In this document: in pieces, positions 9,291 to 43,901 of the stretch
Numbering within the stretch: the first letter of the stretch is position 1
Layout: each line of letters starts with the position of its first letter
From: Patescibacteria group bacterium
Lineage (GTDB): Bacteria > Patescibacteriota > Minisyncoccia > RBG-13-40-8-A
Assembly: GCA_018897295.1 (NCBI GenBank)
Contig: JAHILA010000018.1
Location: 1-56,442, forward strand
Length of the DNA: 56,442 bases
Reading direction: 5' to 3'
Notes under the pieces: generated by a model
What the model was told of the DNA's origin: nothing
Database searches by the model: none
The model's input: the letters and a program-made list of their open reading frames with translations, nothing else
Made by a program: the position numbers and the translations under genes

Positions 9291-9911
9291 TTATTTTTCA
9301 ATCTTCACCTTTCTTCCCTCAATTTTTAGCTTATCCTCACAAAATAATTTAACTGCTTCGGGAAGCGCCTGATGTTCAATTTCAAGTCCACGCTCTTTAA
9401 AAGATTCCAAAGTGTCGTTTTCTTTAATTGGATTTATTTTTTGGATAATTATCGGGCCAGTATCAACTCCCTCATCAACAAAATGCACTGTGCATCCGCC
9501 AACCTTACACCCGTAATTAAACGTATCGCCATAGCCGTCTGTTCCCGGAAATGCCGGTAAAAGCGCTGGATGTATATTAATCAATCTGTATTTGTATTTA
9601 TTTACAAAAAGAGGAGTTAGAACACGCATATATCCAGCCAAAACCACTAAATCAACATTATTCTTTTCTAATATATCAATTATTTTTTGTTCATGTTCCT
9701 CGCGCAAAATTCCTTTATGGTCAATAAAGTGTGTTGGGATTCCAGCTTGTTTTGCCCTTTCTAAGCCAAAAGCATCGGATTTATTAGAAATTACTGCAAC
9801 AATGTTTGCATTTATATTTCCTGCTTTTGCCTCATCAATAATCGCCTGCAAGTTTGTGCCGTTGCCTGAAATTAGTATTGCTATATTTTTCATATGATTT
9901 TTATCCTCCAA
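9291..9911 (-). CDS. purN: phosphoribosylglycinamide formyltransferase
   Basis: 206 aa. ILISGNGTNLQAII, INIHPALLPAFPG, GCTVHFVDEGVDTGPII. Confidence 0.8.
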   Translation of the reverse strand: MEDKNHMKNIAILISGNGTNLQAIIDEAKAGNINANIVAVISNKSDAFGLERAKQAGIPTHFIDHKGILREEHEQKIIDILEKNNVDLVVLAGYMRVLTPLFVNKYKYRLINIHPALLPAFPGTDGYGDTFNYGCKVGGCTVHFVDEGVDTGPIIIQKINPIKENDTLESFKERGLEIEHQALPEAVKLFCEDKLKIEGRKVKIEK

Positions 9912-10602
9912 AATAAATATTTTTTATTCTATCATTGTTTAAAATCTCTTTGCCACCAGTTAAAGCAATTTTGCCGTCCTCTAAAACATAAATTCTATTA
10001 GCGATTTCTGCTGCTTGCTTGGCATTTTGCTCAACAATAATTATGGCGATTCCTTCCTTGTTTATTTCAACAATTTTATCAAAAACCTCTTTCATTGCCT
10101 TGGGCGATAAACCCAATGACGGTTCATCTAGTAAAAGCAATTCCGGGTCCTGAATCAACGCACGGCCAATTGCCAACATCTGTTGCTGACCTCCGGATAA
10201 ATTCATAGCATAATCGGCTTGCCTGTTTTTTAAAAATGGAAATTTATTAAAAACATCTTCTATGTTTCTGTTCAGTAATTGATGGTCTTCCATAATATAA
10301 GCGCCCATTTCCAGATTTTCTTTAATCGTTAAAGTGGCAAAAACCTGCCTGCCTTGGGGCACATAATTAACGCCTTCGTGAATTAAATAATGAGTTGGAA
10401 GCTTAGTAATGTCTTTGTCCTTAAAAATAATCTTGCCTGAATAAATTTCGCATAAGTTAAATATGCTCTTTAAAAGAGTTGACTTTCCCGAACCATTGGG
10501 CCCGATAATGGCCACAATTTCTCCGGTTTTCACTTCCAAATCAACATCATGCAACACCTCCATTCCGTCATATCCAGATTTTAGATTTTGGATTTTTAAC
10601 AT
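9901..10602 (-). CDS. livF: branched-chain amino acid ABC transporter ATP-binding protein (LivF type)
   Basis: 233 aa. Walker A GPNGSGKST, signature LSGGQQQML, Walker B LLLLDEPS. Confidence 0.85.
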   Translation of the reverse strand: MLKIQNLKSGYDGMEVLHDVDLEVKTGEIVAIIGPNGSGKSTLLKSIFNLCEIYSGKIIFKDKDITKLPTHYLIHEGVNYVPQGRQVFATLTIKENLEMGAYIMEDHQLLNRNIEDVFNKFPFLKNRQADYAMNLSGGQQQMLAIGRALIQDPELLLLDEPSLGLSPKAMKEVFDKIVEINKEGIAIIIVEQNAKQAAEIANRIYVLEDGKIALTGGKEILNNDRIKNIYFGG

Positions 10603-31468: not shown

Positions 31469-31945
31469 TTAGTACAAATTTTCTATTTCTTTCATCTCTT
31501 CAGGATTATAGCCTAAAAGACTTATTAGCTTTTTTTCAAACTTGTCCGCCAAAGTTTTAATGGAGGCAGAGTCTGCGCAATTTAAATCCTTAAATGTTCC
31601 CAAAACCAATTTCCAGATATCTTCATCCCTTTCTTCTCCGACAATCGCCTCATTGATTAAATCTGCCAGTTTTTTGGCAATTTTTATTTTCTCCAAATCT
31701 TTTTTGATATTTAAAAATTGATCAATCAAAACCGCGTCTTTTAAAATTAAAAAATTCTTGCCTTCAACAAGAATCATCTGCACATACGTAATAACTTCAA
31801 TAGAGTATCTTAATTTACTTTCTAATCTTTTCACGCCTTTGGCGAAAATATTAATCTTTCCCAATTTTTCGCTATAAATGGTCAAAAGCCGGTCAACCTC
31901 ATTGGAATCAACTGATTTCAATATAATCGCCTCGGTTTTTATCAT
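31469..31945 (-). CDS. recO: DNA repair protein RecO (short form)
   Basis: 158 aa. N-terminal OB-fold pattern MIKTEAIILKSVDSNEVDRLLTIYSEKLGKINIFAKGVKR. Shorter than the typical about 240 aa. Confidence 0.6.
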   Translation of the reverse strand: MIKTEAIILKSVDSNEVDRLLTIYSEKLGKINIFAKGVKRLESKLRYSIEVITYVQMILVEGKNFLILKDAVLIDQFLNIKKDLEKIKIAKKLADLINEAIVGEERDEDIWKLVLGTFKDLNCADSASIKTLADKFEKKLISLLGYNPEEMKEIENLY

Positions 31946-32876
31946 GCTTAAAATTCTTTAATAATTTAATCTTTAACTTGTGCCCGCTACAATGACTCAA
32001 AACTCCTAAATATGATTGAATGTTTTTGTTATTTATCCTTTCAAACATTCTTTTCTTGGTTTTGGTGCGTAAAACTCTATAATACGGTAAAGTTACATAT
32101 CCTAAAAAATCAATTCCCTGACTATATTTCCTTATAATAATCTTATCAGGATAGAAGCATAAATTCAATTGATCATTTAAGAATTGGTTTATTGGATTTA
32201 TTAGTTTCTGTAGCTTATCCTTATTTTTGTCTAAAATTACGAAGTCATCTGTATAACGGAGGTAATGTTTAATTTTTAATTTGTGTTTTACAAATTGGTC
32301 TAACTTATTTAAATAAATATTGGCAAAATACTGGCTTGTAAGATTGCCGAGAGGAATGCCCTTATTTGTTTCTGAATTAAAACTAAAAATTATTTCTTTA
32401 ATCAACCGTAAAATATCATTATCCTTTATTCTCTCCTTTAAAATTTTAATTAAGACATCGTGGTCAACGCTGTCAAAAAACTTCTTAATATCGCACTTTA
32501 AACAATAGAAATTAAATTTATTGTTTTGGCTCTGTTTTAATGAAAATGTTCTTAACCTATTAACTGCTTTGTGTGTTCCTTTATTGATTCGGCAGGAATA
32601 AGAGTCATAAATAAATATTTTGTCGTAAATATTGTTTAGATGTTTTGAGATTAAATGATGAATAATTCTATCTCGGACTTTGGCTTTGTGGATATAACGT
32701 GGTTTCGGATCATTAATACGAAATGAAGTGTATCCGGAATGTTTGTAGGTTTTATTCTTTAATTCTTGGTATAATTGGAATATATTGTCTTCCAAATTAA
32801 ATTCAAATTCCAAAACATCTTTTCTTTTTGATTTTCCTTTTTTGAATTCTCGCCAAGACGAAAACAAATTTTCCAA
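31908..32876 (-). CDS. diversity-generating retroelement reverse transcriptase (true N-terminus probably further upstream, to 32971 via the homopolymer)
   Basis: 322 aa from a TTG. Motif 4 IPLGNLTSQYFANIYL (DGR-type GxxxSQ), YTDDFVIL catalytic box, DPKPRYIHKAKVRDRIIHH. The frame stays open upstream and encodes a Brt-like IKRHNFEKINNYGDLITLENLF. Confidence 0.9.
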   Translation of the reverse strand: MENLFSSWREFKKGKSKRKDVLEFEFNLEDNIFQLYQELKNKTYKHSGYTSFRINDPKPRYIHKAKVRDRIIHHLISKHLNNIYDKIFIYDSYSCRINKGTHKAVNRLRTFSLKQSQNNKFNFYCLKCDIKKFFDSVDHDVLIKILKERIKDNDILRLIKEIIFSFNSETNKGIPLGNLTSQYFANIYLNKLDQFVKHKLKIKHYLRYTDDFVILDKNKDKLQKLINPINQFLNDQLNLCFYPDKIIIRKYSQGIDFLGYVTLPYYRVLRTKTKKRMFERINNKNIQSYLGVLSHCSGHKLKIKLLKNFKHDKNRGDYIEIS

Positions 32877-32928
32877 AGTTATTAAATCGCCGTAATTATT
32901 AATTTTTTCAAAATTATGTCTTTTAATG

Positions 32929-32939
32929 CCCCCCCCCCC
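32929..32939. repeat. C11 (G11 on minus strand) homopolymer tract
   Basis: Counted directly: gcc + ccccccccc. Lies between the ATG and the conserved body of both the RT (minus) and the Avd-like ORF (plus). Confidence 0.95.
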
Positions 32940-32941
32940 AA

Positions 32942-33286
32942 CGGGTTGAAAACGAAGTTTCTATCGTTCATAAAATTATTGAGTTCTATAAATTATTCCA
33001 CGAATACTTAAAGTCATTTCCAAGATCTGAGAAATATACATTAGGAGAAAAAATCGAAAATCTAATTATAGAATTACTGATAACTACATTGAAAAGTGCT
33101 TACTCACATAAGGACAAAAAATTGCCATTATTGAATAAAATTGATAACAGAATTTTTATTTAAAAAACACTTATTCGATTAGCGAAAGAGGTTAAGTCAT
33201 TAGATATTAAAAAATATATTGCTTTAGAGAAAAAACTGCAAGAAATCGGAAAAATGCTAGGCGGTTGGATTAAATCAATAAAATAA
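32942..33286 (+). pseudogene. avd: Avd-like four-helix-bundle accessory protein (23S rRNA IVS protein family). As assembled it has no in-frame start and an internal TAA.
   Basis: Manual translation: RVENEVSIVHKIIEFYKLFHEYLKSFPRSEKYTLGEKIENLIIELLITTLKSAYSHKDKKLPLLNKIDNRIFI*KTLIRLAKEVKSLDIKKYIALEKKLQEIGKMLGGWIKSIK*. The FPxxEKYxLG and IGKMLGGWI motifs are typical. The stop is at 33161-33163. Confidence 0.6.
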
Positions 33287-33294
33287 ACTAAACG

Positions 33295-33321
33295 AAAGAG
33301 CATCTAATAATGATGCTCTTT
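33295..33321. terminator. hairpin aaagagcatc-taataat-gatgctcttt: terminator of the avd-like gene on +, and a structured element just 3' of TR on the minus transcript
   Basis: Perfect 10-bp stem followed by a T-run on + strand. Sits 18 nt from the TR 3' boundary. Confidence 0.45.
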
Positions 33322-33338
33322 TTCGCGCGGAGAGACTT

Positions 33339-33464
33339 CTGGAGAAAACCAGACGCCGAACCATAGTTGGCATTAGTGTTGCTCACCCAATTCGTGTTGA
33401 ACTTGACCTTGCCATCGTTAAAGTTGAAATACGGCGCGCGGCTGAAATCGCCATCAGCATCAGG
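33339..33464 (-). repeat. DGR template repeat (TR)
   Basis: Gap-free 126-nt alignment to VR1 and VR2. The TR is A-rich on the coding-sense strand (7 Asn codons in YFNFNDGKVKFNTNWVSNTNANY). Confidence 0.85.
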
Positions 33465-33601
33465 TTTATTGTTTTTGTCCGTCTGTTTCACTGGAAATCG
33501 AGATTGGCTTTATATACCAAAATTCTCTCAATCCTGCATTTTATTCGACGGCACCCTAATAATATTAGAGACCCACGCCAGACAAAAACAAGCAGTATCT
33601 C

Positions 33602-33610
33602 ATTATAGCA
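33602..33610 (-). promoter_or_regulatory. extended -10 promoter (TGCTATAAT) about 130 nt upstream of TR, candidate TR-RNA/RT promoter
   Basis: Minus strand reads agtgTGcTATAATg. No strong -35. Confidence 0.35.
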
Positions 33611-33703
33611 CACTCTTGGAAGTCGTGACCACCAAGATTCTGGCTATTTATAGTTTATCAAATTCTTATTTTTAAAACAATATTTATTTTTATAAATTAA
33701 AAT

Positions 33704-33731
33704 GCGGGATGCCTCCATTGAGACATCCCGC
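33704..33731 (-). terminator. conserved GC-rich hairpin 22 nt downstream of the target-1 stop codon (28 nt beyond the VR1 3' boundary): terminator and/or DGR target-recognition cruciform
   Basis: gcgggatg...catcccgc stem. The same element with a 12-bp perfect stem sits at the equivalent position after VR2. Confidence 0.6.
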
Positions 33732-33753
33732 CAAGAATTCAAGAATTCCAGAG

Positions 33754-34620
33754 TTACTGCTGGAGAAAACCAGACGCCGAACCATAGTGGGCACTAGCGC
33801 TGCCCACCCAATCCGTGCCGAACCTGACCTCGCCACCGCTAAAGCTGAAACACGGCGCGCGGCTGAAATCGCCATCAGCAGCAGGCGCGTATTCGTCACC
33901 AGCGCAGTCGATCCAAGGATCGTCGTAGTGCTGGAGACGTTCGGGATGCGTGAGAATCATGCACCCGATTTTGAATGCGCCGAGTCCGAACTCATTGCCT
34001 GTAAAGACCTCACGGGCCCGACGAACGGAGCGACCCCGGTGACGAAGACCGAACTGCGAGGCAACGACCAGAATGTCGAAGCCCGTTTGTTGGTTACCTA
34101 ACATCTGGAGCTTCTTGGCCGTGCGCTCATGCTGCCGGAGATACTGCTCTCCGATCCTGCCTTCGCGGTGGTTGTAGAAGTTGCCGTCGCGCTGCTTCTT
34201 GATCAGATCGAGCACCTTCTGTACTGCTTCGTTGTAGGTCTTGGCGACCGACTGCCAACGCGGGATGGCGAACCATCCTTCGGCATTCGGCGGAAGCGGC
34301 TGCTGTGCCAACTTCTCATCGGCGAATCCGGCGCCTGGGAAGAGTTGCCGCAGGATGTTGGTCTGCTCCGTGATTCCTTTCGGCTTGTAGCCCGACAGGT
34401 ATCCGTAGCTGGACTTTACTTCCTCGTCGGCGAACTGGTTGCTCAGCGAGTGCTTCTTGATGGAAACGGTAATGTCGGCTTGGAATTCGTCGCCGTTCTC
34501 GATGAGTTTCTGAATACCGTCCTTGTCGAGGAGACCCTCGGCAATTGCGCGATCCACAGCATCTTCCGCGAACCGCTTAACCTGTTTCTGTTGACCCGAC
34601 GTGATCGATTGTGTCGTCAT
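33754..34620 (-). CDS. DGR target (variable) protein 1, GC-rich, no signal peptide, C-terminal VR
   Basis: 288 aa. C-terminus GDFSRAPCFSFSGGEVRFGTDWVGSASAHYGSASGFLQQ. RBS aaaggag upstream. Paralog of 42888-43763. Confidence 0.85.
   Translation of the reverse strand: MTTQSITSGQQKQVKRFAEDAVDRAIAEGLLDKDGIQKLIENGDEFQADITVSIKKHSLSNQFADEEVKSSYGYLSGYKPKGITEQTNILRQLFPGAGFADEKLAQQPLPPNAEGWFAIPRWQSVAKTYNEAVQKVLDLIKKQRDGNFYNHREGRIGEQYLRQHERTAKKLQMLGNQQTGFDILVVASQFGLRHRGRSVRRAREVFTGNEFGLGAFKIGCMILTHPERLQHYDDPWIDCAGDEYAPAADGDFSRAPCFSFSGGEVRFGTDWVGSASAHYGSASGFLQQ
33760..33885 (-). repeat. DGR variable repeat 1 (VR1)
   Basis: 15 mismatches to TR, all at TR adenines (T on + strand). The 3' 28 nt (33760-33787) are identical to TR (IMH-like). 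Confidence 0.85.
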
Positions 34621-34709
34621 CGTCTTTCTCCTTTTTCCGTTTGGCTTTGTAATTTAAGGGGTTTTCCCCACCTGCGGAATATATAAATAAAAAATTCTTG
34701 TTTTCTTGT

Positions 34710-34738
34710 ATTTTAGGGTACTGGTTATAGTATAGCAA
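34710..34738 (-). promoter_or_regulatory. putative sigma70-type promoter of target gene 1 (TTGCTA-17-TAAAAT)
   Basis: Same spacing and -10 are conserved upstream of target gene 2 (GTGCTA-17-TAAAAT), within a conserved leader. Confidence 0.45.
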
Positions 34739-34743
34739 AATGA

Positions 34744-37605
34744 CTAAACTTTGTCAATAGTTAACACCCTTTTGGCGGAAAATATAATTTCTTCGGCAAT
34801 GACTTGCTTTTTGATTTGCTCTGCGTATTTTTCTATAATTTCTTTTCCCTCCTTCGCTGAAGCTACGGAGGACAAGCCGTAATAAACTCTTATCTTATCT
34901 TTCGGCGTTAAATTGGCTTTTTTCCTTAAAACCTGAACACTTCTTACAAAATCCCTAACCATTCCTTCTTCTTTTAATTCTGGAGTAATTTCAGCTCTCA
35001 ACCCTATATTTATGATATCTTTATTTCGATTAGAATCTACAACAATTTTTTTAACGTTTATTTCTTCTTCAATTAATTTCGAGAGTTCACTTTCTAGTTT
35101 AAAATCAGGAATAATTAATTCCGAAAGTGGTTGTCGTACTTTTATCCCTTTTGATGCTCGTATTTGCAGGGCCATACTACAGATTTCTCTAATCTGTTCC
35201 ATTTTTTCTTCAAGCTTTTCGTCAATCAATTTTTTATCTACCTTTGGCCAATCTTCAAGATGAACCGACTCTTTGTCCCCGCCAATTTCCTTATATATGT
35301 GCTCTGCTGTAAACGGCATTACCGGCGCCATTATTTTGGATAATTCCAATAAAACATATTTCAGGGTCTGAACAGCTTCTTTTTTATTATCAGATTTAAA
35401 TCTCTCTCGCGAACGCCTTAAATACCAGGTCGACAATTCATCAATAAATCCGGCAAGCGGCCGAGTGGCTTCATTTAAATCATAATTATTGTATCCTTCA
35501 GTAATTTCTTTTTTCAGAGATTCGATTTTTGAAAGAATCCATTTATCCAAAACATTCTTGCTTTTTGTGCTGGCTTCTGCTTCGCTTTCAAACATTTTAT
35601 AAAACGACAAAACATTCAATAAAATCAGTAAAATCTTTTTTACCACCTCATCAACTCCCTTTTCCGAAAAACACAAATCATCAGCTTTCATTACCGAAGA
35701 AGTGGCTAAATAATAACGCACTGCATCAGCGCCATGTTTTTCAAAAACATTCATTGGGTCAGGATAATTATTCAGATGCTTGGACATTTTTTTGCCGTCT
35801 TCAGCCAAAACCATGCCATTCACAATCACATTTTTAAATGCTTCTTTGCCTTTAATCGCAGACGCTAAAACGTGCAAATAATAAAACCATGCCCTCGTCT
35901 GATCCACGCCCTCGGCAATAAATTGCGCTGGAAAGTTTTCCTCGAATTTCTCTTTGTTTTCAAAGGGATAATGCATTTGTCCATAAGGCATTGAACCCGA
36001 TTCAAACCAACAATCTAAAACATCAGGAATCCTTCGCATCATTCCGCCCTGCCCTGAGCCTGTCGAATGGGCGCATTTTTCACAAGGAAACGTAATTTTA
36101 TCCATAAAGTGTTTATGCAAATCCGTAATTTTTTCTTCGCTTAATTCTTCCAATTCTTTTATTGAACCGATTACTTTTTTCTCTTTGCATTTATCACAAA
36201 CCCAAATTGGAATTACCGAGCCCCAGAACCGCTGGCGCGAAATTGACCAATCGCGCGCGCCTTCCAACCATTTGCCAAATCTCCCCTCTTTAATGTGCTC
36301 TGGCACCCAATTTATTTTCTTGGCATATTTCAGCATTTTATCTTTCAGCTCGATAATATTAACAAATAAAGAAGAAGTTGCGTAATTTAAAAGCGGGGAT
36401 TCGCAACGATAACAAAAAGGATAGGAATGAATAAATTTCTCTGTTTTAAAAACCAGATTTTTCTTCTCTAAAAACTCAATTATTTTTTTATCTGTTGATT
36501 GCGGATTAGATTTCGGCTTAACTTCCAAACCAACAAAATCTTTTGCTTCATCAGTAATCTGTCCGTCTATTTTGACATGCTGGATAAACGGCAGATTTTT
36601 CTCCTTACCCAAATTCATATCATCCTCGCCGAATGCAGGCGCGATATGCACAACGCCTGTGCCATCTTCAATAGTCACAAAATCAGCTAATTGAATCGTA
36701 TAAAGATTTTCCCTACCCGCCATTGCAAGCGAAGCGTTGCGGGTGGATAAATAATAATTAAATAATGGTTTGTATTTTTTACCCTCCAAATCTTTGGCTT
36801 TTGTTTTCCCGATTATCTCATGTTTTTTATTGCCAAAAATTGCATCGAGATTTTGTTCGGCTAAAATGTATTTCCCATCATCTGATTTAACTTCGACATA
36901 ATTGATATGCTTGCCAATTGCTAAAGCAACATTGCCCGGTAGAGTCCAGGGCGTGGTTGTCCAGGCCAAAATATAAGTTCCTGGTTCATCTACTAATTCA
37001 AACTTGGCAATAATTGAAATATCTTCAATGTCCTGATAATTATCGCTTACTTCATGCTGGGATAATGTTGTTTCGCATCTTGGGCAAATATGCATTGATT
37101 TATATCCCTCATAAATCAATTTTTTATCCCATAATTGTTTAAAAACCCACCATACGCTCTCCATAAAGCTTGGATCCATAGTATGATAAGCATTTTCCAT
37201 ATCCGCCCATCTGCCCAATCTCTCAATTACCTTTTTCCATTCGCCCACATATTTTAAAACCTTGCTTCGCGCTATTTCATTGAATCTATCGACTCCAATC
37301 GCCTCAATATCTTTTTTGTGTTTTAATTCCAATTCTTCTTCAACTATGTTCTCAATCGGCAGACCATGGGTATCCCAACCCCATTTTCTTTCTACTTTGT
37401 AACCACGCATTGTCCAGTATCGCGGAACCATATCTTTCATTAAAGATGCGACAATATGACCATAGTGCGGGGTGCCAGTGGCAAATGGTGGCCCATCATA
37501 AAATACAAAATCCCCCTTCGGCGATTTTTTTGCGAGGGATTTTTCAAAAATCTTATTTTCTTTCCAAAATTCCAATATTTTCTTTTCTATTTCAGGTATA
37601 TTCAC
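34744..37605 (-). CDS. ileS: isoleucine--tRNA ligase
   Basis: 953 aa. PPFATGTPHYGHIV, KMSKHLNN, editing domain, zinc-binding cysteines. Confidence 0.95.
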   Translation of the reverse strand: MNIPEIEKKILEFWKENKIFEKSLAKKSPKGDFVFYDGPPFATGTPHYGHIVASLMKDMVPRYWTMRGYKVERKWGWDTHGLPIENIVEEELELKHKKDIEAIGVDRFNEIARSKVLKYVGEWKKVIERLGRWADMENAYHTMDPSFMESVWWVFKQLWDKKLIYEGYKSMHICPRCETTLSQHEVSDNYQDIEDISIIAKFELVDEPGTYILAWTTTPWTLPGNVALAIGKHINYVEVKSDDGKYILAEQNLDAIFGNKKHEIIGKTKAKDLEGKKYKPLFNYYLSTRNASLAMAGRENLYTIQLADFVTIEDGTGVVHIAPAFGEDDMNLGKEKNLPFIQHVKIDGQITDEAKDFVGLEVKPKSNPQSTDKKIIEFLEKKNLVFKTEKFIHSYPFCYRCESPLLNYATSSLFVNIIELKDKMLKYAKKINWVPEHIKEGRFGKWLEGARDWSISRQRFWGSVIPIWVCDKCKEKKVIGSIKELEELSEEKITDLHKHFMDKITFPCEKCAHSTGSGQGGMMRRIPDVLDCWFESGSMPYGQMHYPFENKEKFEENFPAQFIAEGVDQTRAWFYYLHVLASAIKGKEAFKNVIVNGMVLAEDGKKMSKHLNNYPDPMNVFEKHGADAVRYYLATSSVMKADDLCFSEKGVDEVVKKILLILLNVLSFYKMFESEAEASTKSKNVLDKWILSKIESLKKEITEGYNNYDLNEATRPLAGFIDELSTWYLRRSRERFKSDNKKEAVQTLKYVLLELSKIMAPVMPFTAEHIYKEIGGDKESVHLEDWPKVDKKLIDEKLEEKMEQIREICSMALQIRASKGIKVRQPLSELIIPDFKLESELSKLIEEEINVKKIVVDSNRNKDIINIGLRAEITPELKEEGMVRDFVRSVQVLRKKANLTPKDKIRVYYGLSSVASAKEGKEIIEKYAEQIKKQVIAEEIIFSAKRVLTIDKV
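34847..34876. repeat. GC-rich palindromic element, family A copy 2, inverted (inside ileS)
   Basis: ccctccttcgctgaagctacggaggacaag is the reverse complement of the livG/argS copies. Translated as LSSVASAKEG. Confidence 0.75.
36711..36746. repeat. GC-rich palindromic element, family B copy 2 (inside ileS)
   Basis: ccctacccgccattgcaagcgaagcgttgcgggtgg. Translated as TRNASLAMAGR. Confidence 0.7.
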
Positions 37606-39164
37606 ATTTTTTCGGGCTTACTGATGCCCATTAAATTCAAAATATTTTCCAAGACGATTTTTGTAGCCATAATTAATGCCAGACGCGCTTTTTCCAAATC
37701 TTTTTTCTCTCCCAAAACATGGCATTCAGTATAAAATCTATGAAACAATGATGCAACTTTCATTGCGTATGCCGGCAAACGATGAACTTGATAATCTTTT
37801 GCTATTTCTTCAATAATTTCCGGAAACGCGATTAAGTTTTTAATCAGTTCTATTTCAGCAGAATGATTTAGTAATTCTAATTTTACATTCAAATTATGCC
37901 CGCTGGTTTTTCTTAAAATGCTGTTAATGCGGGCATATGCGTATTGGACATAATAGACAGGATTTTTGTCCGATTTCTCTTTTGCTAAATCCAAATCAAA
38001 ATCCATCTGTTTATCATTTGAATGCATCAAAAAGAAAAATCTGACCACATCAGAACCAACTGCATCAAGTAAATCATCCATAGGAATAAAAGTTCCCAGG
38101 CGTTTGGACATTTTTATTTTTTTTCCTTTTTCTATTACTGTAATAAATTGCTGTAAAATTATTTCCAATTGCCCCTTATATCCGATTGCCTCAACCCCAG
38201 CCATTAAGCCAGGCACATCGCCGTGATGGTCAGCGCCCCAGATATTTATTACTTTATCGAATTTTCTCTCCTTAAATTTATTATAATGATAAGCAATATC
38301 GCTGGCTAAATATGTTTTTAAGCCGTCTTTTTTAATCAGAACCCTATCCCGATTATCTCCTAAACTGCTGCTTTTAAACCAAGTCGCGCCATCCTGTTCG
38401 TATAATAAATTTTTGTCTTTTAATAATTTGATTATTTTCTCTGACAAGTCCTTTTTATGCAAATTAGATTCCCAAAACCATTCGTCATATTTAATCCCGA
38501 ATTTATCAATCGTCTTTTTTATCATTTCATCAATAATAATTTCCGCTGCCTTCTGACCTACTTCATATGCGTCTTTTTCCTTAATTCTGTCGGCCAATAA
38601 ATCAATATACTCTCCTTTATACTGCGCCTGGTCATCTTTTAATATTGAATGCCCTAAAACAGCTATTTGGTTCCCGGCATTATTTACATAAAACTCTTTT
38701 TTTATTTTATATCCAACAAAATTTAAAATATTTGCCAAAACATCTCCCATTGGACCGCCTCTGCCATTGGCAACTGTCAGGGGGCCAGTGGGATTAGAGG
38801 AAATAAATTCCACTTGTACTTTTTTGCCTTTACCAATATCGGTTTTCCCGTAATTTTTATTCTCTTTGATAATTTCTTTAATCTGGTTTTGCAAAAATTC
38901 TGGCTTGAAATAAAAATTTATAAAACCATTTACAATATCGATTTTTTCGAAAATTCCATCGTCTATTTTTGACCTGATTTCATTTGCAACTTCCATTGGA
39001 CCTCGCTTTTCTTTTTTTGCTAAAATTAAAGCCACATTTGTGGCATAATCGCCGTATTCCTTATTTTCCGGAATCTCTACAGTAAAATTCTTGTCCTCCG
39101 TAGCTTCAGCGTAGGAGGAAACTGCTTTCTTTATTATTTCCTTAATCTGCTTTCGAATTGTCAT
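37602..39164 (-). CDS. argS: arginine--tRNA ligase
   Basis: 520 aa. SSNPTGPLTVANGRG (HIGH-equivalent), MSKRLG-like KMSK region, DALR anticodon-binding C-terminus. Confidence 0.95.
   Translation of the reverse strand: MTIRKQIKEIIKKAVSSYAEATEDKNFTVEIPENKEYGDYATNVALILAKKEKRGPMEVANEIRSKIDDGIFEKIDIVNGFINFYFKPEFLQNQIKEIIKENKNYGKTDIGKGKKVQVEFISSNPTGPLTVANGRGGPMGDVLANILNFVGYKIKKEFYVNNAGNQIAVLGHSILKDDQAQYKGEYIDLLADRIKEKDAYEVGQKAAEIIIDEMIKKTIDKFGIKYDEWFWESNLHKKDLSEKIIKLLKDKNLLYEQDGATWFKSSSLGDNRDRVLIKKDGLKTYLASDIAYHYNKFKERKFDKVINIWGADHHGDVPGLMAGVEAIGYKGQLEIILQQFITVIEKGKKIKMSKRLGTFIPMDDLLDAVGSDVVRFFFLMHSNDKQMDFDLDLAKEKSDKNPVYYVQYAYARINSILRKTSGHNLNVKLELLNHSAEIELIKNLIAFPEIIEEIAKDYQVHRLPAYAMKVASLFHRFYTECHVLGEKKDLEKARLALIMATKIVLENILNLMGISKPEKM
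39090..39119. repeat. GC-rich palindromic element, family A copy 3 (inside argS)
   Basis: cttgtcctccgtagcttcagcgtaggagga. Translated as SSYAEATEDK. Confidence 0.75.
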
Positions 39165-40426: not shown

Positions 40427-41164
40427 TTAAATTTTTTGCCATTCTATGTAACCATCCCTGTCCACATATTCAACAGTCCCTTCTGGTTCGTGACCAATTG
40501 CCTTATATCTTTGTCCTTTAATGACAACCTCTGCCTCGCCACTGTATGATGAAACAACACCCCATCTGATCGTATTATAACTCTTATTTTCTATACCACA
40601 TTCAAGAGCAAGCATTTCAAGTTCATCAGAAGTAAACTGGTTAAATCCTTGACTCAAAGTCTTTTCAGCCAAGTCTACTCTTCGATTTAAAGAGTTAAGT
40701 TGTTGTGTTGACATTCTAAATAATGATTCTTGTTCTGGAGATAACGACTCACTTTTTCTAGTAGTAGATGGTATTTCTTGAGGTATAAATTCTATGTAAC
40801 CATCCCTGTCCACATATTCAGCAGTTCCTTCTGGTCCATGACCCACTGCTTTGTATTTTCTACCATTTATTTCAACTTGAGCCTCACCACTATATTTTGA
40901 AATTCTTCCCTCTCTATCTGTATCGTAAGATTTATCTTGTACTCCGCCTTCTGATGCCATTTTATAAACATCTCGTAATGCTACTGAATCCATATCAGTT
41001 TTAAGCGCTGTTTGTGCATTGTCCATTTGTATTCTAATAATTTCAACCTGTTTCATGGTCTGCTTGAAAATCTCTCTGCCTTCAAAGGCGAGTACTTTTA
41101 ATCCAGACTCTTTGGCCTCCCTGCGCTTTTGTAATGACATGTCGCCTTTAAGTTTTTCTGGCAT
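40427..41164 (-). CDS. hypothetical protein with two copies of an about 45-aa C-terminal-type module
   Basis: 245 aa. ISKYSGEAQVEINGRKYKAVGHGPEGTAEYVDRDGYIEF and VSSYSGEAEVVIKGQRYKAIGHEPEGTVEYVDRDGYIEW. The DNA repeat is near-identical over about 33 nt. Confidence 0.5.
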   Translation of the reverse strand: MPEKLKGDMSLQKRREAKESGLKVLAFEGREIFKQTMKQVEIIRIQMDNAQTALKTDMDSVALRDVYKMASEGGVQDKSYDTDREGRISKYSGEAQVEINGRKYKAVGHGPEGTAEYVDRDGYIEFIPQEIPSTTRKSESLSPEQESLFRMSTQQLNSLNRRVDLAEKTLSQGFNQFTSDELEMLALECGIENKSYNTIRWGVVSSYSGEAEVVIKGQRYKAIGHEPEGTVEYVDRDGYIEWQKI

Positions 41165-41239: not shown

Positions 41240-41482
41240 TTAAACTAATCGTTTTTTAAAGAAAGCATTGCCCGAACCGGTTTTTAAATATTTTTCGAAT
41301 TGATAGGCCTTCTCTTTCTCTGGAAAAGCACAATAAAAAACTAATTTATATGGTTTTCTTGATGAAGTATAAATAACTCGTCCATTGTTATGTTCTTTAA
41401 TTCTTTGTTTAAGGTCTTCTGTTGAACCAGCGTAATATGTTTTATCTTTCTGGCTTTGAAGGATATAAGTATAATACATCAA
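41240..41482 (-). CDS. GIY-YIG nuclease family small protein
   Basis: 80 aa. YYTYILQS..DKTYYAGSTEDLKQRIKEHN.G pattern. Confidence 0.75.
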   Translation of the reverse strand: MMYYTYILQSQKDKTYYAGSTEDLKQRIKEHNNGRVIYTSSRKPYKLVFYCAFPEKEKAYQFEKYLKTGSGNAFFKKRLV

Positions 41483-41527: not shown

Positions 41528-41552
41528 TTCGTTTCTATTTAATATTGTCATT

Positions 41553-41626
41553 AGAATGGCAAGGATGGCTTGCCATCCGAAGCTCCGATAGAATGACAAG
41601 GATGGCTTGCCATCCGAAGCTCCGAT
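41553..41626. repeat. tandem direct repeat, 2 x 37 nt, each containing a ggatgg-cttg-ccatcc hairpin
   Basis: agaatg(g/a)caaggatggcttgccatccgaagctccgat twice, 36/37 identical. Followed by the gctccgat-tt-atcggagc palindrome. Confidence 0.85.
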
Positions 41627-41642
41627 TTATCGGAGCGAAGGA

Positions 41643-42001
41643 TGGAGACGGGGAGAATTGAACTCCCGTCTCGAAGGCTCTTTAAAATAATTCGACAAGC
41701 TTGGTCTGTTTATTTTCTCGGTTATTTAGATAAAAAGCAGACAAAAATCAGAATAACCTGACCCAATTTCATTTCAGTGTTTTGCATTGGGAATCAAGAC
41801 ACCTATCTCAAATGCCTTTCGGCACTATAACACTTCAATCGCCTATTGAGAATCTCAATTAAAGTGGCTGCGACTTAATAAATTAAGCTGTAGCGAAAGC
41901 AAAATTTGTTTTTGCGTTTGTTTTTTTCAGATTTTAACGAGATGCTGAAGTCCTCGGCTTGCTTATTTTAAAAAGATCTTCGATCGAAACCTATCGTCCC
42001 C
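41643..42001 (-). ncRNA. ssrA: tmRNA (ssrA), tag reading frame GCA AAA ACA AAT TTT GCT TTC GCT ACA GCT TAA = AKTNFAFATA*
   Basis: 5' GGGGACGAUAGGUUUCGAUCG and 3' GAGACGGGAGUUCAAUUCUCCCCGUCUCCA. Acceptor pairs with a G3:U wobble. T arm GGGAG-UUCAAUU-CUCCC. Directly downstream of smpB. Confidence 0.85.
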
Positions 42002-42835: not shown

Positions 42836-42865
42836 GCGGGATGTCTCCATTGAGAGACATCCCGC
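42836..42865 (-). terminator. conserved hairpin downstream of VR2 (gcgggatgtctc-cattga-gagacatcccgc) followed by a T-run on the minus strand
   Basis: Perfect 12-bp stem. Minus strand continues ACTTTTTTAT. Homologous to 33704-33731. Confidence 0.65.
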
Positions 42866-42887
42866 CAAGAATTCAAGAATTCCAGAG

Positions 42888-43763
42888 TTACTGCTGGAGA
42901 AAACCAGACGCCGAACCATAGCGGGCATTAGTGAGGCCCACCCAACGCGTGCCGAACAAGACCCCGCCAACGCGGAAGCGGAAGCACGGCGCGTCGTGGA
43001 AATCGCCAGCAGCATCAGGCGCATACTCGTTGCCAGCGCAGTCGATCCATAGGTCGTCATAAGAGACGAACCGTTCAGGATGTGTCAGAAGCATGCAACC
43101 TGCCTTGAATGCGCCGAGTCCGAACTCGTTGGCCATAAAGACCTCGTGAGTCCGACGAACGGAGCGACCCCGATGGCGAAAACCGAACTGAGCGGCGACG
43201 ACCAGAATGTCGAAGCCCGTCTGTTGGTCACCCAACATCTGGAGCTTCTTGGCCGTGCGCTCGTGCTGGCGGAGATACGTCTCTCCGATTTCGCCTCCGC
43301 GGTAGTTGTAGAAGTTGCCCTTGCGCTGCCTCTTGATCAGGTCGAGCACCTTCTGAACCGCCTCGTTGTAGGTCTTGGCAACCGACTGCCAACGCGGGAT
43401 GGCGAACCATCCTTCGGCGCCATCGGGGAGCTCAGACAAGCTCTTGGCGAACTCGAGGGTCTGACTCGGGTTGAGATTGAAAATCTTGGCGATTGCCTTG
43501 ATCTGATCCGCGATCGGCTTTGGCCCCTTGTACTCCTTCGGGTACGTGCGGTTGGAACAAACTTCCTCGTCGGCGAACTGGTTGGACGCGGACAGCTCAG
43601 TGATGAGCTTCGCGATCCCGTCCTGCAGTTCACCACCGCGCTCGTTGAGTCGCTGTGCGCGCGCATCGTCGAGCTTGGACTTGTTGTAGACGGCCTCGAA
43701 GAGACCGACTGCGTGGAGACCTTTCGGGTCTCGGCTGGTGATCAATGTTTTTAACATCGTCAT
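42888..43763 (-). CDS. DGR target (variable) protein 2, GC-rich paralog of 33754-34620
   Basis: 291 aa. C-terminal half is highly similar to target 1 (AEGWFAIPRWQSVAKTYNEAVQKVLDLIK...FDILVVA.QFG.RHRGRSVRR). Ends GDFHDAPCFRFRVGGVLFGTRWVGLTNARYGSASGFLQQ. Confidence 0.85.
   Translation of the reverse strand: MTMLKTLITSRDPKGLHAVGLFEAVYNKSKLDDARAQRLNERGGELQDGIAKLITELSASNQFADEEVCSNRTYPKEYKGPKPIADQIKAIAKIFNLNPSQTLEFAKSLSELPDGAEGWFAIPRWQSVAKTYNEAVQKVLDLIKRQRKGNFYNYRGGEIGETYLRQHERTAKKLQMLGDQQTGFDILVVAAQFGFRHRGRSVRRTHEVFMANEFGLGAFKAGCMLLTHPERFVSYDDLWIDCAGNEYAPDAAGDFHDAPCFRFRVGGVLFGTRWVGLTNARYGSASGFLQQ
42894..43019 (-). repeat. DGR variable repeat 2 (VR2), remote
   Basis: Gap-free 126-nt alignment to TR. 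By my count there are 26 mismatches: 21 at TR adenines and 5 non-adenine differences clustered in the 5' (coding-sense) third. Confidence 0.8.
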
Positions 43764-43843
43764 CCTCCTTTTTTCCGCTTGGGTTTAATTTAGGATTACT
43801 CCTATCCAGCGGAATATATGAATAAAAATCCTTGTTTATTTGT

Positions 43844-43872
43844 ATTTTAGGGTACTATCTACAACATAGCAC
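43844..43872 (-). promoter_or_regulatory. putative promoter of target gene 2 (GTGCTA-17-TAAAAT)
   Basis: Lies in a conserved leader: cggaatatat.aataaaaa..cttgtt...ttgtattttagggtact is shared with locus 1. Confidence 0.45.
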
Positions 43873-43901
43873 TTATCTTTCTTTGTGTCAAGCCAGAAAT
43901 A

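Follow-up and report, generated by a model that had tools for sequence, protein, structure and literature searches.

Contig JAHILA010000018.1 of a Patescibacteria group bacterium (GenBank assembly GCA_018897295.1), analysed here over its positions 1 to 56,442 and called the window, carries a diversity-generating retroelement (DGR) with two GC-rich target genes. Its reverse transcriptase (RT), a 322-residue protein encoded at 31908–32876 (minus strand) in DNA of only 27.6% GC, contains the motifs LGNLTSQ and YTDD and matches RVT_1 (E = 4.5e-24); in tblastn searches it matched annotated DGR RTs, including brt of phage BPP-1 and the RT of ANMV-1. Both GC-rich islands are targets of this one DGR. 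A non-coding template repeat (TR) of 135 nt (33330–33464, minus strand) recurs as a variable region (VR) at the 3′ end of each target open reading frame (ORF): VR1 (33751–33885, minus strand) covers residues 246–288 of target 1, and VR2 lies at 42885–43019 (minus strand) in target 2. Mismatches to the TR fall at its adenines in 16 of 18 cases for VR1 and 22 of 29 for VR2 (P ~1e-9 each). Because VR1 and VR2 differ from each other as well as from the TR, the element has been active in the past. The TR holds 31 adenines (23%) and 21 adenine-containing codons, mostly AAC, AAT and AAG, which could in theory yield up to ~1e18 VR variants.

Target 1 (33754–34620, 288 aa), defined by its ORF, its composition and 2363 homologues, and target 2 (42888–43763, 291 aa), a remote target 9 kb from the TR defined by ORF and composition, both lie on the minus strand and have the lengths first given for them. 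Each forms a self-contained cassette, as originally predicted, with a promoter, conserved leader and 3′ hairpin of its own. The proposed leader, ribosome-binding site and hairpin stood; the proposed promoter TTGCTA-17-TAAAAT did not, as it scores below TTGACA-17-TATACT for target 1 (34757–34729, forming with the leader and ribosome-binding site GGAG a minus-strand unit at 34621–34757) and TTGACA-17-TATGTT for target 2 (43891–43863; with its conserved leader 43764–43891, minus strand). Both target promoters carry a TG upstream of the −10 element. The target 1 leader is AT-rich, ~100 nt long and conserved with cassette 2. The window leaders hold a small hairpin only, GGGG-AAAA-CCCC in target 1 and AGGA-GUAA-UCCU in target 2, and are of a different type from those of many other members (positions 9861–10000 of locus L001 and 17 other loci, alignment A9), in which a ~23-bp hairpin (AUGAGACGAGC...GCUCGUCUCAU) is followed by a second small hairpin before the ribosome-binding site. 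With compensatory changes in 18 of 28 predicted pairs, this longer leader is a candidate cis-regulatory RNA.

At the other end, the segment 3′ of the VR is identical in both targets, and the TR diverges past its VR-like part. Periodic CTTGA/CTTGG repeats begin right after the stop codon and recur every ~9–10 nt (33732–33753 and 42866–42887 in the window, and in the 3′ flanks of ~45 loci), with 2 copies in the window cassettes and 5–7 in most relatives. Next comes a GC-rich hairpin followed by a T-run, of 12 bp downstream of VR1 (33704–33731, minus strand) and of 13 bp downstream of VR2 (42836–42865, minus strand), with related elements in homologues; the one after VR1, which is kept in cassette 2, is either a terminator or a DGR target-recognition hairpin. 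Since the repeats and the hairpin are common to both targets and absent from the TR, they are candidates for target recognition. In many loci the stem of the post-stop hairpin reads GGGGTTATCCACA...TGTGGATAACCCC and includes a DnaA-box-like TTATCCACA.

The TR is preceded by a promoter-like TGGTCA-18-TATAAT with a TG (33602–33631, minus strand) and directly followed by a hairpin (33295–33321, minus strand) that may serve as a terminator or belong to the DGR RNA spacer. An Rfam scan of the cassette returned sub-threshold matches only; one of these, a weak partial match to RT-7 RNA (RF03028, 27.8 bits against a gathering score of 116.8) at 33581–33644 (minus strand), overlaps the promoter-like site. 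Between RT and TR lies a bAvd-like accessory gene, avd (32926–33286, plus strand; PF22296, E = 7e-20), which is damaged: a C11 tract (32929–32939) puts its ATG (32926) out of frame, and an in-frame TAA stands at 33161–33163. The gene is intact in 36 homologous loci, whose copies are undamaged at both lesion sites. The window copy may be a pseudogene in a decaying DGR, carry a phase-variable tract or reflect an assembly error.

We next consider composition. By direct count the coding sequences (CDSs) of targets 1 and 2 have 57.3% and 58.4% GC, compared with a mean of 35.3% (s.d. 3.0, maximum 46%) for non-island 870-nt windows of the sliding profile, which places both islands ~7.5 s.d. above the rest of the window. 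The two compositional islands of the original prediction are thereby confirmed, against a background richer than had been estimated by hand (35.9% rather than ~30% for the whole window, and 36.7% rather than ~23% for ileS). The description of the whole cassette as an island held for the CDS and the 3′ hairpin, which make up the GC-rich stretch, and failed for the promoter and 5′ leader, which are AT-rich. GC at third codon positions (GC3) is 0.70 in target 1 and 0.74 in target 2. Codon choice is inverted in all synonymous families, as in the share of AAG among lysine codons (0.83 in the targets versus 0.20 in native genes) and of CGN among arginine codons (92% versus 35%), and amino-acid content is shifted too, with glycine, alanine, arginine and proline making up 29% of target residues versus 19% in native proteins. 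The excess thus spans all three codon positions and the amino-acid make-up, and ends at the gene ends.

Several simple explanations fell away at this stage. GC3 is uniform along the target gene, with no 3′-to-5′ gradient, which excludes a conversion gradient starting from the VR. Avoidance of adenine on the coding strand is excluded as well, because T at third positions is depleted like A and coding-strand adenine stands at 21–23%. The stacked shadow ORFs of the islands had been put down to composition, and the antisense open-frame fraction agrees: at 0.748 it equals the expectation from synonymous-codon shuffles (0.749), so the shadow ORFs are a by-product of composition, and an overlapping antisense gene behind them, or behind synonymous constraint, is excluded.

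The same excess recurs throughout a very large protein family. Homologues numbered 2363 in a 90%-identity collection, and clustering of the family at 50% identity gave 1776 representatives, of which 682 have E-values below 1e-30. Its relatives span 334 GTDB species, and nearly all of the 80 best belong to Patescibacteria (Paceibacteria, Nealson-, Wildermuth-, Harrison-, Lipton-, Nomura-, Vogel-, Falkow-, Magasanik- and Berkelbacteria, among others), and every member with a named source comes from candidate phyla radiation (CPR) bacteria or their phages. We surveyed 85 family genes in about 80 loci fetched from other genomes. Mean GC was 57.9% in the gene (39–65%) and 41.1% in the flanks (29–54%), the gene exceeding its flanks in 85 of 85 cases; GC3 reached 0.91, and on five IMG/VR contigs the gene was likewise richer than its surroundings. 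In one phage genome, structural genes have 45–49% GC and the RT 42%, compared with 56.5% for the target.

The neighbouring RT behaves differently. Across 37 loci with an RT ~1 kb from the target, mean GC was 40.1% for the RT, 41.6% for the flanks and 58.7% for the target. RT composition follows the host closely (r = 0.81, slope 0.94) and target composition only weakly (r = 0.53, slope 0.39); the avd gene of the cassette is apparently host-like too. RT-linked and RT-less copies did not differ in GC, giving no sign of a dependence on a linked RT. Nor is gene-wide richness general among DGRs: in four unrelated viral DGR targets (crAss-like cr56_1, phage Perkons, Dulem virus 37 and ANMV-1) GC rises in the last ~150 nt only, at the VR, and GC3 is not raised. 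These results show that GC richness is intrinsic to this gene family and is not the mark of a recent import here.

Recent horizontal acquisition from a high-GC donor such as a host organism, with a cassette that has yet to drift to the AT-rich composition of its recipient, was one of the two explanations originally offered, and it has real attractions. Target codon usage and amino acids resemble those of a ~60% GC genome, and the cassette is mobile and sometimes phage-borne. A sharp compositional step, foreign codon usage and mobility are also what horizontally acquired islands of atypical GC display. However, no sampled donor has a genome GC matching the gene and also carries a DGR; the named sources are CPR, and the family was absent from 72,556 plasmids and 50,697 phage genomes searched. 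All ~90 contexts, phage at 45–49% GC among them, are also poorer in GC than the gene. Unlike acquired islands, each mobile cassette holds one atypical gene beside a fully host-like RT and an apparently host-like avd, and the anomaly is conserved over hundreds of host species and outlasts synonymous saturation. The alternative originally set beside import, a gene class under unusual compositional constraint, is the better fit of the two.

One subclade offers the nearest thing to a compositionally matching source. The distant full-length relatives P0218/P0240 are native in composition to their 53% GC contigs, with the gene at 55–56% GC (L096 8001–8900 and L097 8001–8873), and this favours import. 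Against it, they are 42% identical, have no TR or RT within 8 kb, and their nearest named relatives are CPR; they may represent a non-DGR branch of the family. One of the contigs also carries plasmid- or integrative-conjugative-element-like genes (TrwB/DUF87 ATPases, a relaxase-like protein and a primase).

Comparison of loci shows how the cassette travels. The same target-TR-avd-RT cassette sits in unrelated flanks in L042 and L050, and again in L027 and L023, and is therefore mobile. In locus L066, ileS and a recO-like gene are adjacent, while in the window the DGR lies between them, indicating that it was inserted there. Between the window and L066, L069 and L038 the target is 57–62% identical, compared with 44–53% for IleRS, 25–28% for ArgRS, 39% for IF3, 54% for L20 and 49–56% for SmpB, and conservation of the target above such genes (25–56%) is a further point for import. 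In six loci (L091, L034, L037, L041, L087 and L088) the cassette lies in a phage genome, between the terminase and the SU10-type portal and major capsid protein genes. L091 (1–20867) illustrates the arrangement, with RT, bAvd and target between a GpA-type terminase and SU10-type portal, major capsid protein, adaptor and amidase genes. The phage carrying the cassette presumably infects CPR bacteria. A position between terminase and portal is unusual for a receptor-binding protein.

Substitution patterns bear on how the composition has lasted. Measured against target 1, the family is under purifying selection (pN/pS ~0.25–0.4; Jukes–Cantor-corrected dN/dS ~0.15–0.2), and median pS is 0.63, near the ~0.69 ceiling for this composition. 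GC3 nonetheless stays near 0.73 across the family, so high GC3 is not a remnant of recent common ancestry, and members sharing it at near-saturated synonymous divergence speak against a recent import. Saturation and high GC3, together with the excess in phage copies, indicate that a GC-favouring process acts on the target module itself. We polarised synonymous changes in 20 independent ingroup pairs and counted 269 from G or C to A or T versus 138 in the opposite direction, a balance that favours import, although the RT control is weak because RT comparisons are too saturated for parsimony. Per site, changes towards G or C are the faster (0.071 versus 0.044), implying an equilibrium GC3 of ~0.6, below the present 0.76 and far above the ~0.3 of host genes. 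Taking both sides together, we regard recent high-GC import as improbable.

Direct selection on the target nucleotide sequence, for DGR function, mRNA stability or expression, would also keep the gene GC-rich, for example by insulating the scaffold from recombination or mutagenesis, or through a structured mRNA. In its favour, the native target mRNA was predicted to be more stable than its synonymous shuffles in 8 of 8 members (z −1.5 to −7.5, mean −3.5, versus a mean of −0.6 for eight control genes), and in 22 of 33 related pairs the RT had diverged more than the target at four-fold sites. A near-invariant CDS hairpin with a UUCG loop, GGAUGG-UUCG-CCAUCC (34258–34273, minus strand), counts for it too; it encodes EGWFAIP, and its synonymous positions are kept in 31 family members (alignment A7, columns 406–421). 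RNAalifold on 31 CDSs, however, found no conserved covarying structure (−20 kcal/mol, covariation term −2.5), and conserved mRNA structure was rejected even though single sequences beat their shuffles.

The divergence data also argue against a uniform constraint. The target/RT ratio ranges from 0.25 to 1, as in L041 and L037, where four-fold divergence is 0.129 in the target versus 0.504 in the RT, and in other pairs where the two are equal (0.107 versus 0.112); uniform constraint would give a constant ratio, and the heterogeneity points instead to exchange of the target module. RT-less copies are equally GC-rich, other DGR targets lack whole-gene richness, and the shifted amino acids point to directional pressure rather than codon-level selection. 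Direct selection is thus an unlikely account, if a stronger one than import.

A joining of foreign GC-rich fragments to an AT-rich contig during assembly or binning is suggested by the metagenome-assembled nature of the data and the abrupt steps in composition, but is effectively refuted. The steps fall at promoter and terminator boundaries, the TR that matches both VRs lies in AT-rich DNA by the AT-rich RT, and the same arrangement occurs in >85 independent assemblies from several sources.

What the targets encode was approached through sequence and fold searches. The two proteins show mosaic identity, with 37% over residues 1–112, 85% over residues 113–245 and 67% in the VR. No Pfam family matched either protein, nor any of 91 diverse members at E <= 1; PHROGs, NCBIfam and PADLOC returned nothing for the target proteins, PDB sequence and profile searches gave no match, and longer family members showed no Pfam domain fusions. 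By eye, WFAIPRW and NEFGLGAF recall the formylglycine-generating enzyme (FGE) motifs WRLPTxxEW and NxFGLYDM; this likeness had no backing from hhalign, which gave 0.15% probability for the family profile against an FGE-type C-terminal profile. AlphaFold2 with 50 homologues produced a confident model (pLDDT 89.9, pTM 0.78) with an N-terminal three-helix part and an alpha/beta domain. Foldseek found nothing for it at E <= 0.001 in PDB or BFVD (best E 3 and 0.9), where FGE, PvdO, CarF, snake-venom lectins and phage tail-collar fibre proteins appeared as noise over 35–77 columns and Mtd, TvpA, AvpA and TaqVP were not among the matches; a domain-only model was poorer than the full-length one and had no Foldseek match. 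The VR scaffold, as the original prediction had it, goes unrecognised by Pfam, PDB sequence search, FGE-type profile comparison and Foldseek. The fold may still be a very divergent C-type lectin.

The predicted structure suggests how the variable residues would be displayed. Residues 257/259/261 and 264/266/268/270 alternate on predicted strands E254–261 and E264–271, which suggests that the ~19 diversified codons, on a predicted C-terminal beta-hairpin and the loop after it, form one hypervariable face, presumably a ligand-binding surface. Most likely, the target proteins are soluble and act as binders through this variable face of a beta-sheet. Neither sequence has a transmembrane helix or a hydrophobic N-terminus by our hydropathy analysis (maximum 19-residue Kyte–Doolittle values 1.17 and 1.24 for targets 1 and 2; hydrophilic N-termini), in line with the lack of signal peptide, lipobox and transmembrane helix first noted. 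Calling the proteins cytoplasmic on that ground was an overstatement: relatives occur in phage genomes, and proteins of virions or released at lysis also have no signal peptide, so its lack is no proof of a cytoplasmic site. A cytoplasmic location is plausible, and the proteins could instead act in virions or after lysis.

Together, these results show that the window holds one DGR with two targets from an uncharacterised family of CPR bacteria and their phages that has an intrinsic GC excess, and they make it probable that a target-specific process keeps this excess. In such a system the TR RNA (33330–33464) would be copied by the RT (31908–32876) with errors at adenines, and the cDNA would replace the last ~130 nt of either target, recognised most likely through the near-identical 3′ end, the CTTGA repeats and the GC-rich hairpin. 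A GC-favouring force specific to the gene, or a continuing GC-rich source, would lie behind the lasting high GC3. We favour GC-biased gene conversion or recurrent allele replacement, in a recombining and partly phage-vectored module, over direct selection on the nucleotide sequence, and hold this proposal tentatively, at somewhat below even chances. That the family represents a new DGR scaffold outside the C-type lectins, and/or a gene-wide GC richness actively kept by a target-specific process, is a bolder claim that we consider rather doubtful.

Several observations weigh against this interpretation. The absolute excess of changes towards A or T amounts to a downward drift of the kind expected after import from a richer source. 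The equal GC of RT-less and RT-linked copies argues against a direct link to retrohoming, and single-copy genomes are GC-rich too, which weakens conversion between paralogues as the driver. A few decayed members have fallen to 39–47% GC (among them L031 at 39%, L028 at 45% and L065, which has an RT pseudogene, at 45%); high GC is thus not a requirement. Given the avd lesions, the window DGR may no longer be active. The processes named for the GC-favouring force are candidates, and the binding-face model was built on the predicted AlphaFold secondary-structure string.

In its mechanics the system resembles those of Mtd (Bordetella phage BPP-1), TvpA (Treponema denticola), archaeal AvpA and Thermus TaqVP. 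As in these, the VR forms the last ~45 residues of the ORF and is followed by a GC-rich 3′ constant segment and hairpin, TR codons are AAY-rich, mismatches are adenine-specific, one RT and TR serve an adjacent and a remote target, and the family occurs in phages too. Unlike variable proteins of the C-type-lectin (CLec) and FGE types, the targets have no FGE-sulfatase or other Pfam match, fall outside the FGE-type motif series WxLPTxxEW ... NxWGLxDMxGNVWEW ... RGGSW ... GFR, of which they lack the motifs RGGSW...GFR, and carry their diversified residues on a predicted two-stranded beta-hairpin. Unlike the four viral control targets, GC-rich in the VR only, the window family is GC-rich over the whole gene. 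To our knowledge, all structurally characterised DGR variable regions so far are C-type-lectin folds.

Parallels also exist among CPR-clade DGR targets (RT clade 2; Roux et al. 2021, PMC8144416; Wu et al. 2018, PMC5758913), which share the CPR host and an Avd-type accessory gene and, like the proteins here, have no transmembrane segment, signal peptide or recognisable domain (PMC8144416). The window family is very probably among the CPR targets catalogued by Roux et al. 2021, Wu et al. 2018 and Paul et al. 2017; the catalogued unclassified VR classes include 'UVR1-6' and ungrouped CPR VRs (PMC5758913). Large surveys take unannotated CPR targets as further CLec variants, and the true non-membrane status of targets without transmembrane segments or recognisable domains was posed there as an open question (PMC8144416). 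Cytoplasmic targets have been described in multicellular bacteria, as CLec sensors fused to STAND NTPase, MoxR and other domains (Dore et al. 2024, PMC10907252). The novelty first claimed for an intracellular DGR target had therefore been anticipated (PMC8144416, PMC10907252). The proteins described here likewise have no predicted export signal, and diversified binding inside the cell is conceivable; they differ from those targets (PMC10907252) in being small and stand-alone, with no effector, NTPase or conflict-system domain and no PADLOC match, in having an RT of a different clade, and in that some relatives lie between phage terminase and portal genes. The literature searched, which did not extend to Paul et al. 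2017 or the supplements of Wu et al., makes no mention of gene-wide GC richness in CPR targets, of conservation above housekeeping genes or of phage-borne copies of the family.

This is a very large family, better conserved than aminoacyl-tRNA synthetases between the same genomes, and its confident model has no detectable structural relative. These features recommend it for structure determination and for finding out what is diversified by CPR bacteria and their phages. With a GC excess limited to one gene beside a host-equilibrated RT, selection, biased gene conversion and recurrent transfer could be told apart in a clean natural setting. If true, target-specific GC upkeep would give hypermutation targets of reduced, AT-rich genomes a compositional signature not described before. 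In practice, these targets can be spotted cheaply in CPR assemblies as a ~0.9-kb GC island beside an AT-rich RT.

We also noted features outside the retroelement. LOOT RNA (Rfam RF03000, 73–78 bits, above the gathering score) occurs a few hundred bases or less from the target in each of three related loci (L012 11051–11170, L037 11041–11169 and L025 9558–9687), and none was found in the window. In the window, a tandem pair of 37-nt repeats (41552–41625, 97% identical), each with a GGCAAG...CTTGCC palindrome, directly follows the tmRNA gene (41640–42001, minus strand) on its 3′ side and is adjoined by a small GIY-YIG-like ORF (41240–41482). The arms of a GC-rich inverted repeat (32 nt, 94% complementary) fall in two different genes, one inside the 3′ end of ileS (34845–34876) and the other in the 5′ part of argS (39090–39121). 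Finally, a 245-aa ORF (40427–41164) contains a 163-nt internal duplication (40441–40603 and 40789–40951, 72% identity), giving two copies of a ...YSGEAxVxIxGxxYKAxGHxPEGTxEYVDRDGYIE module.

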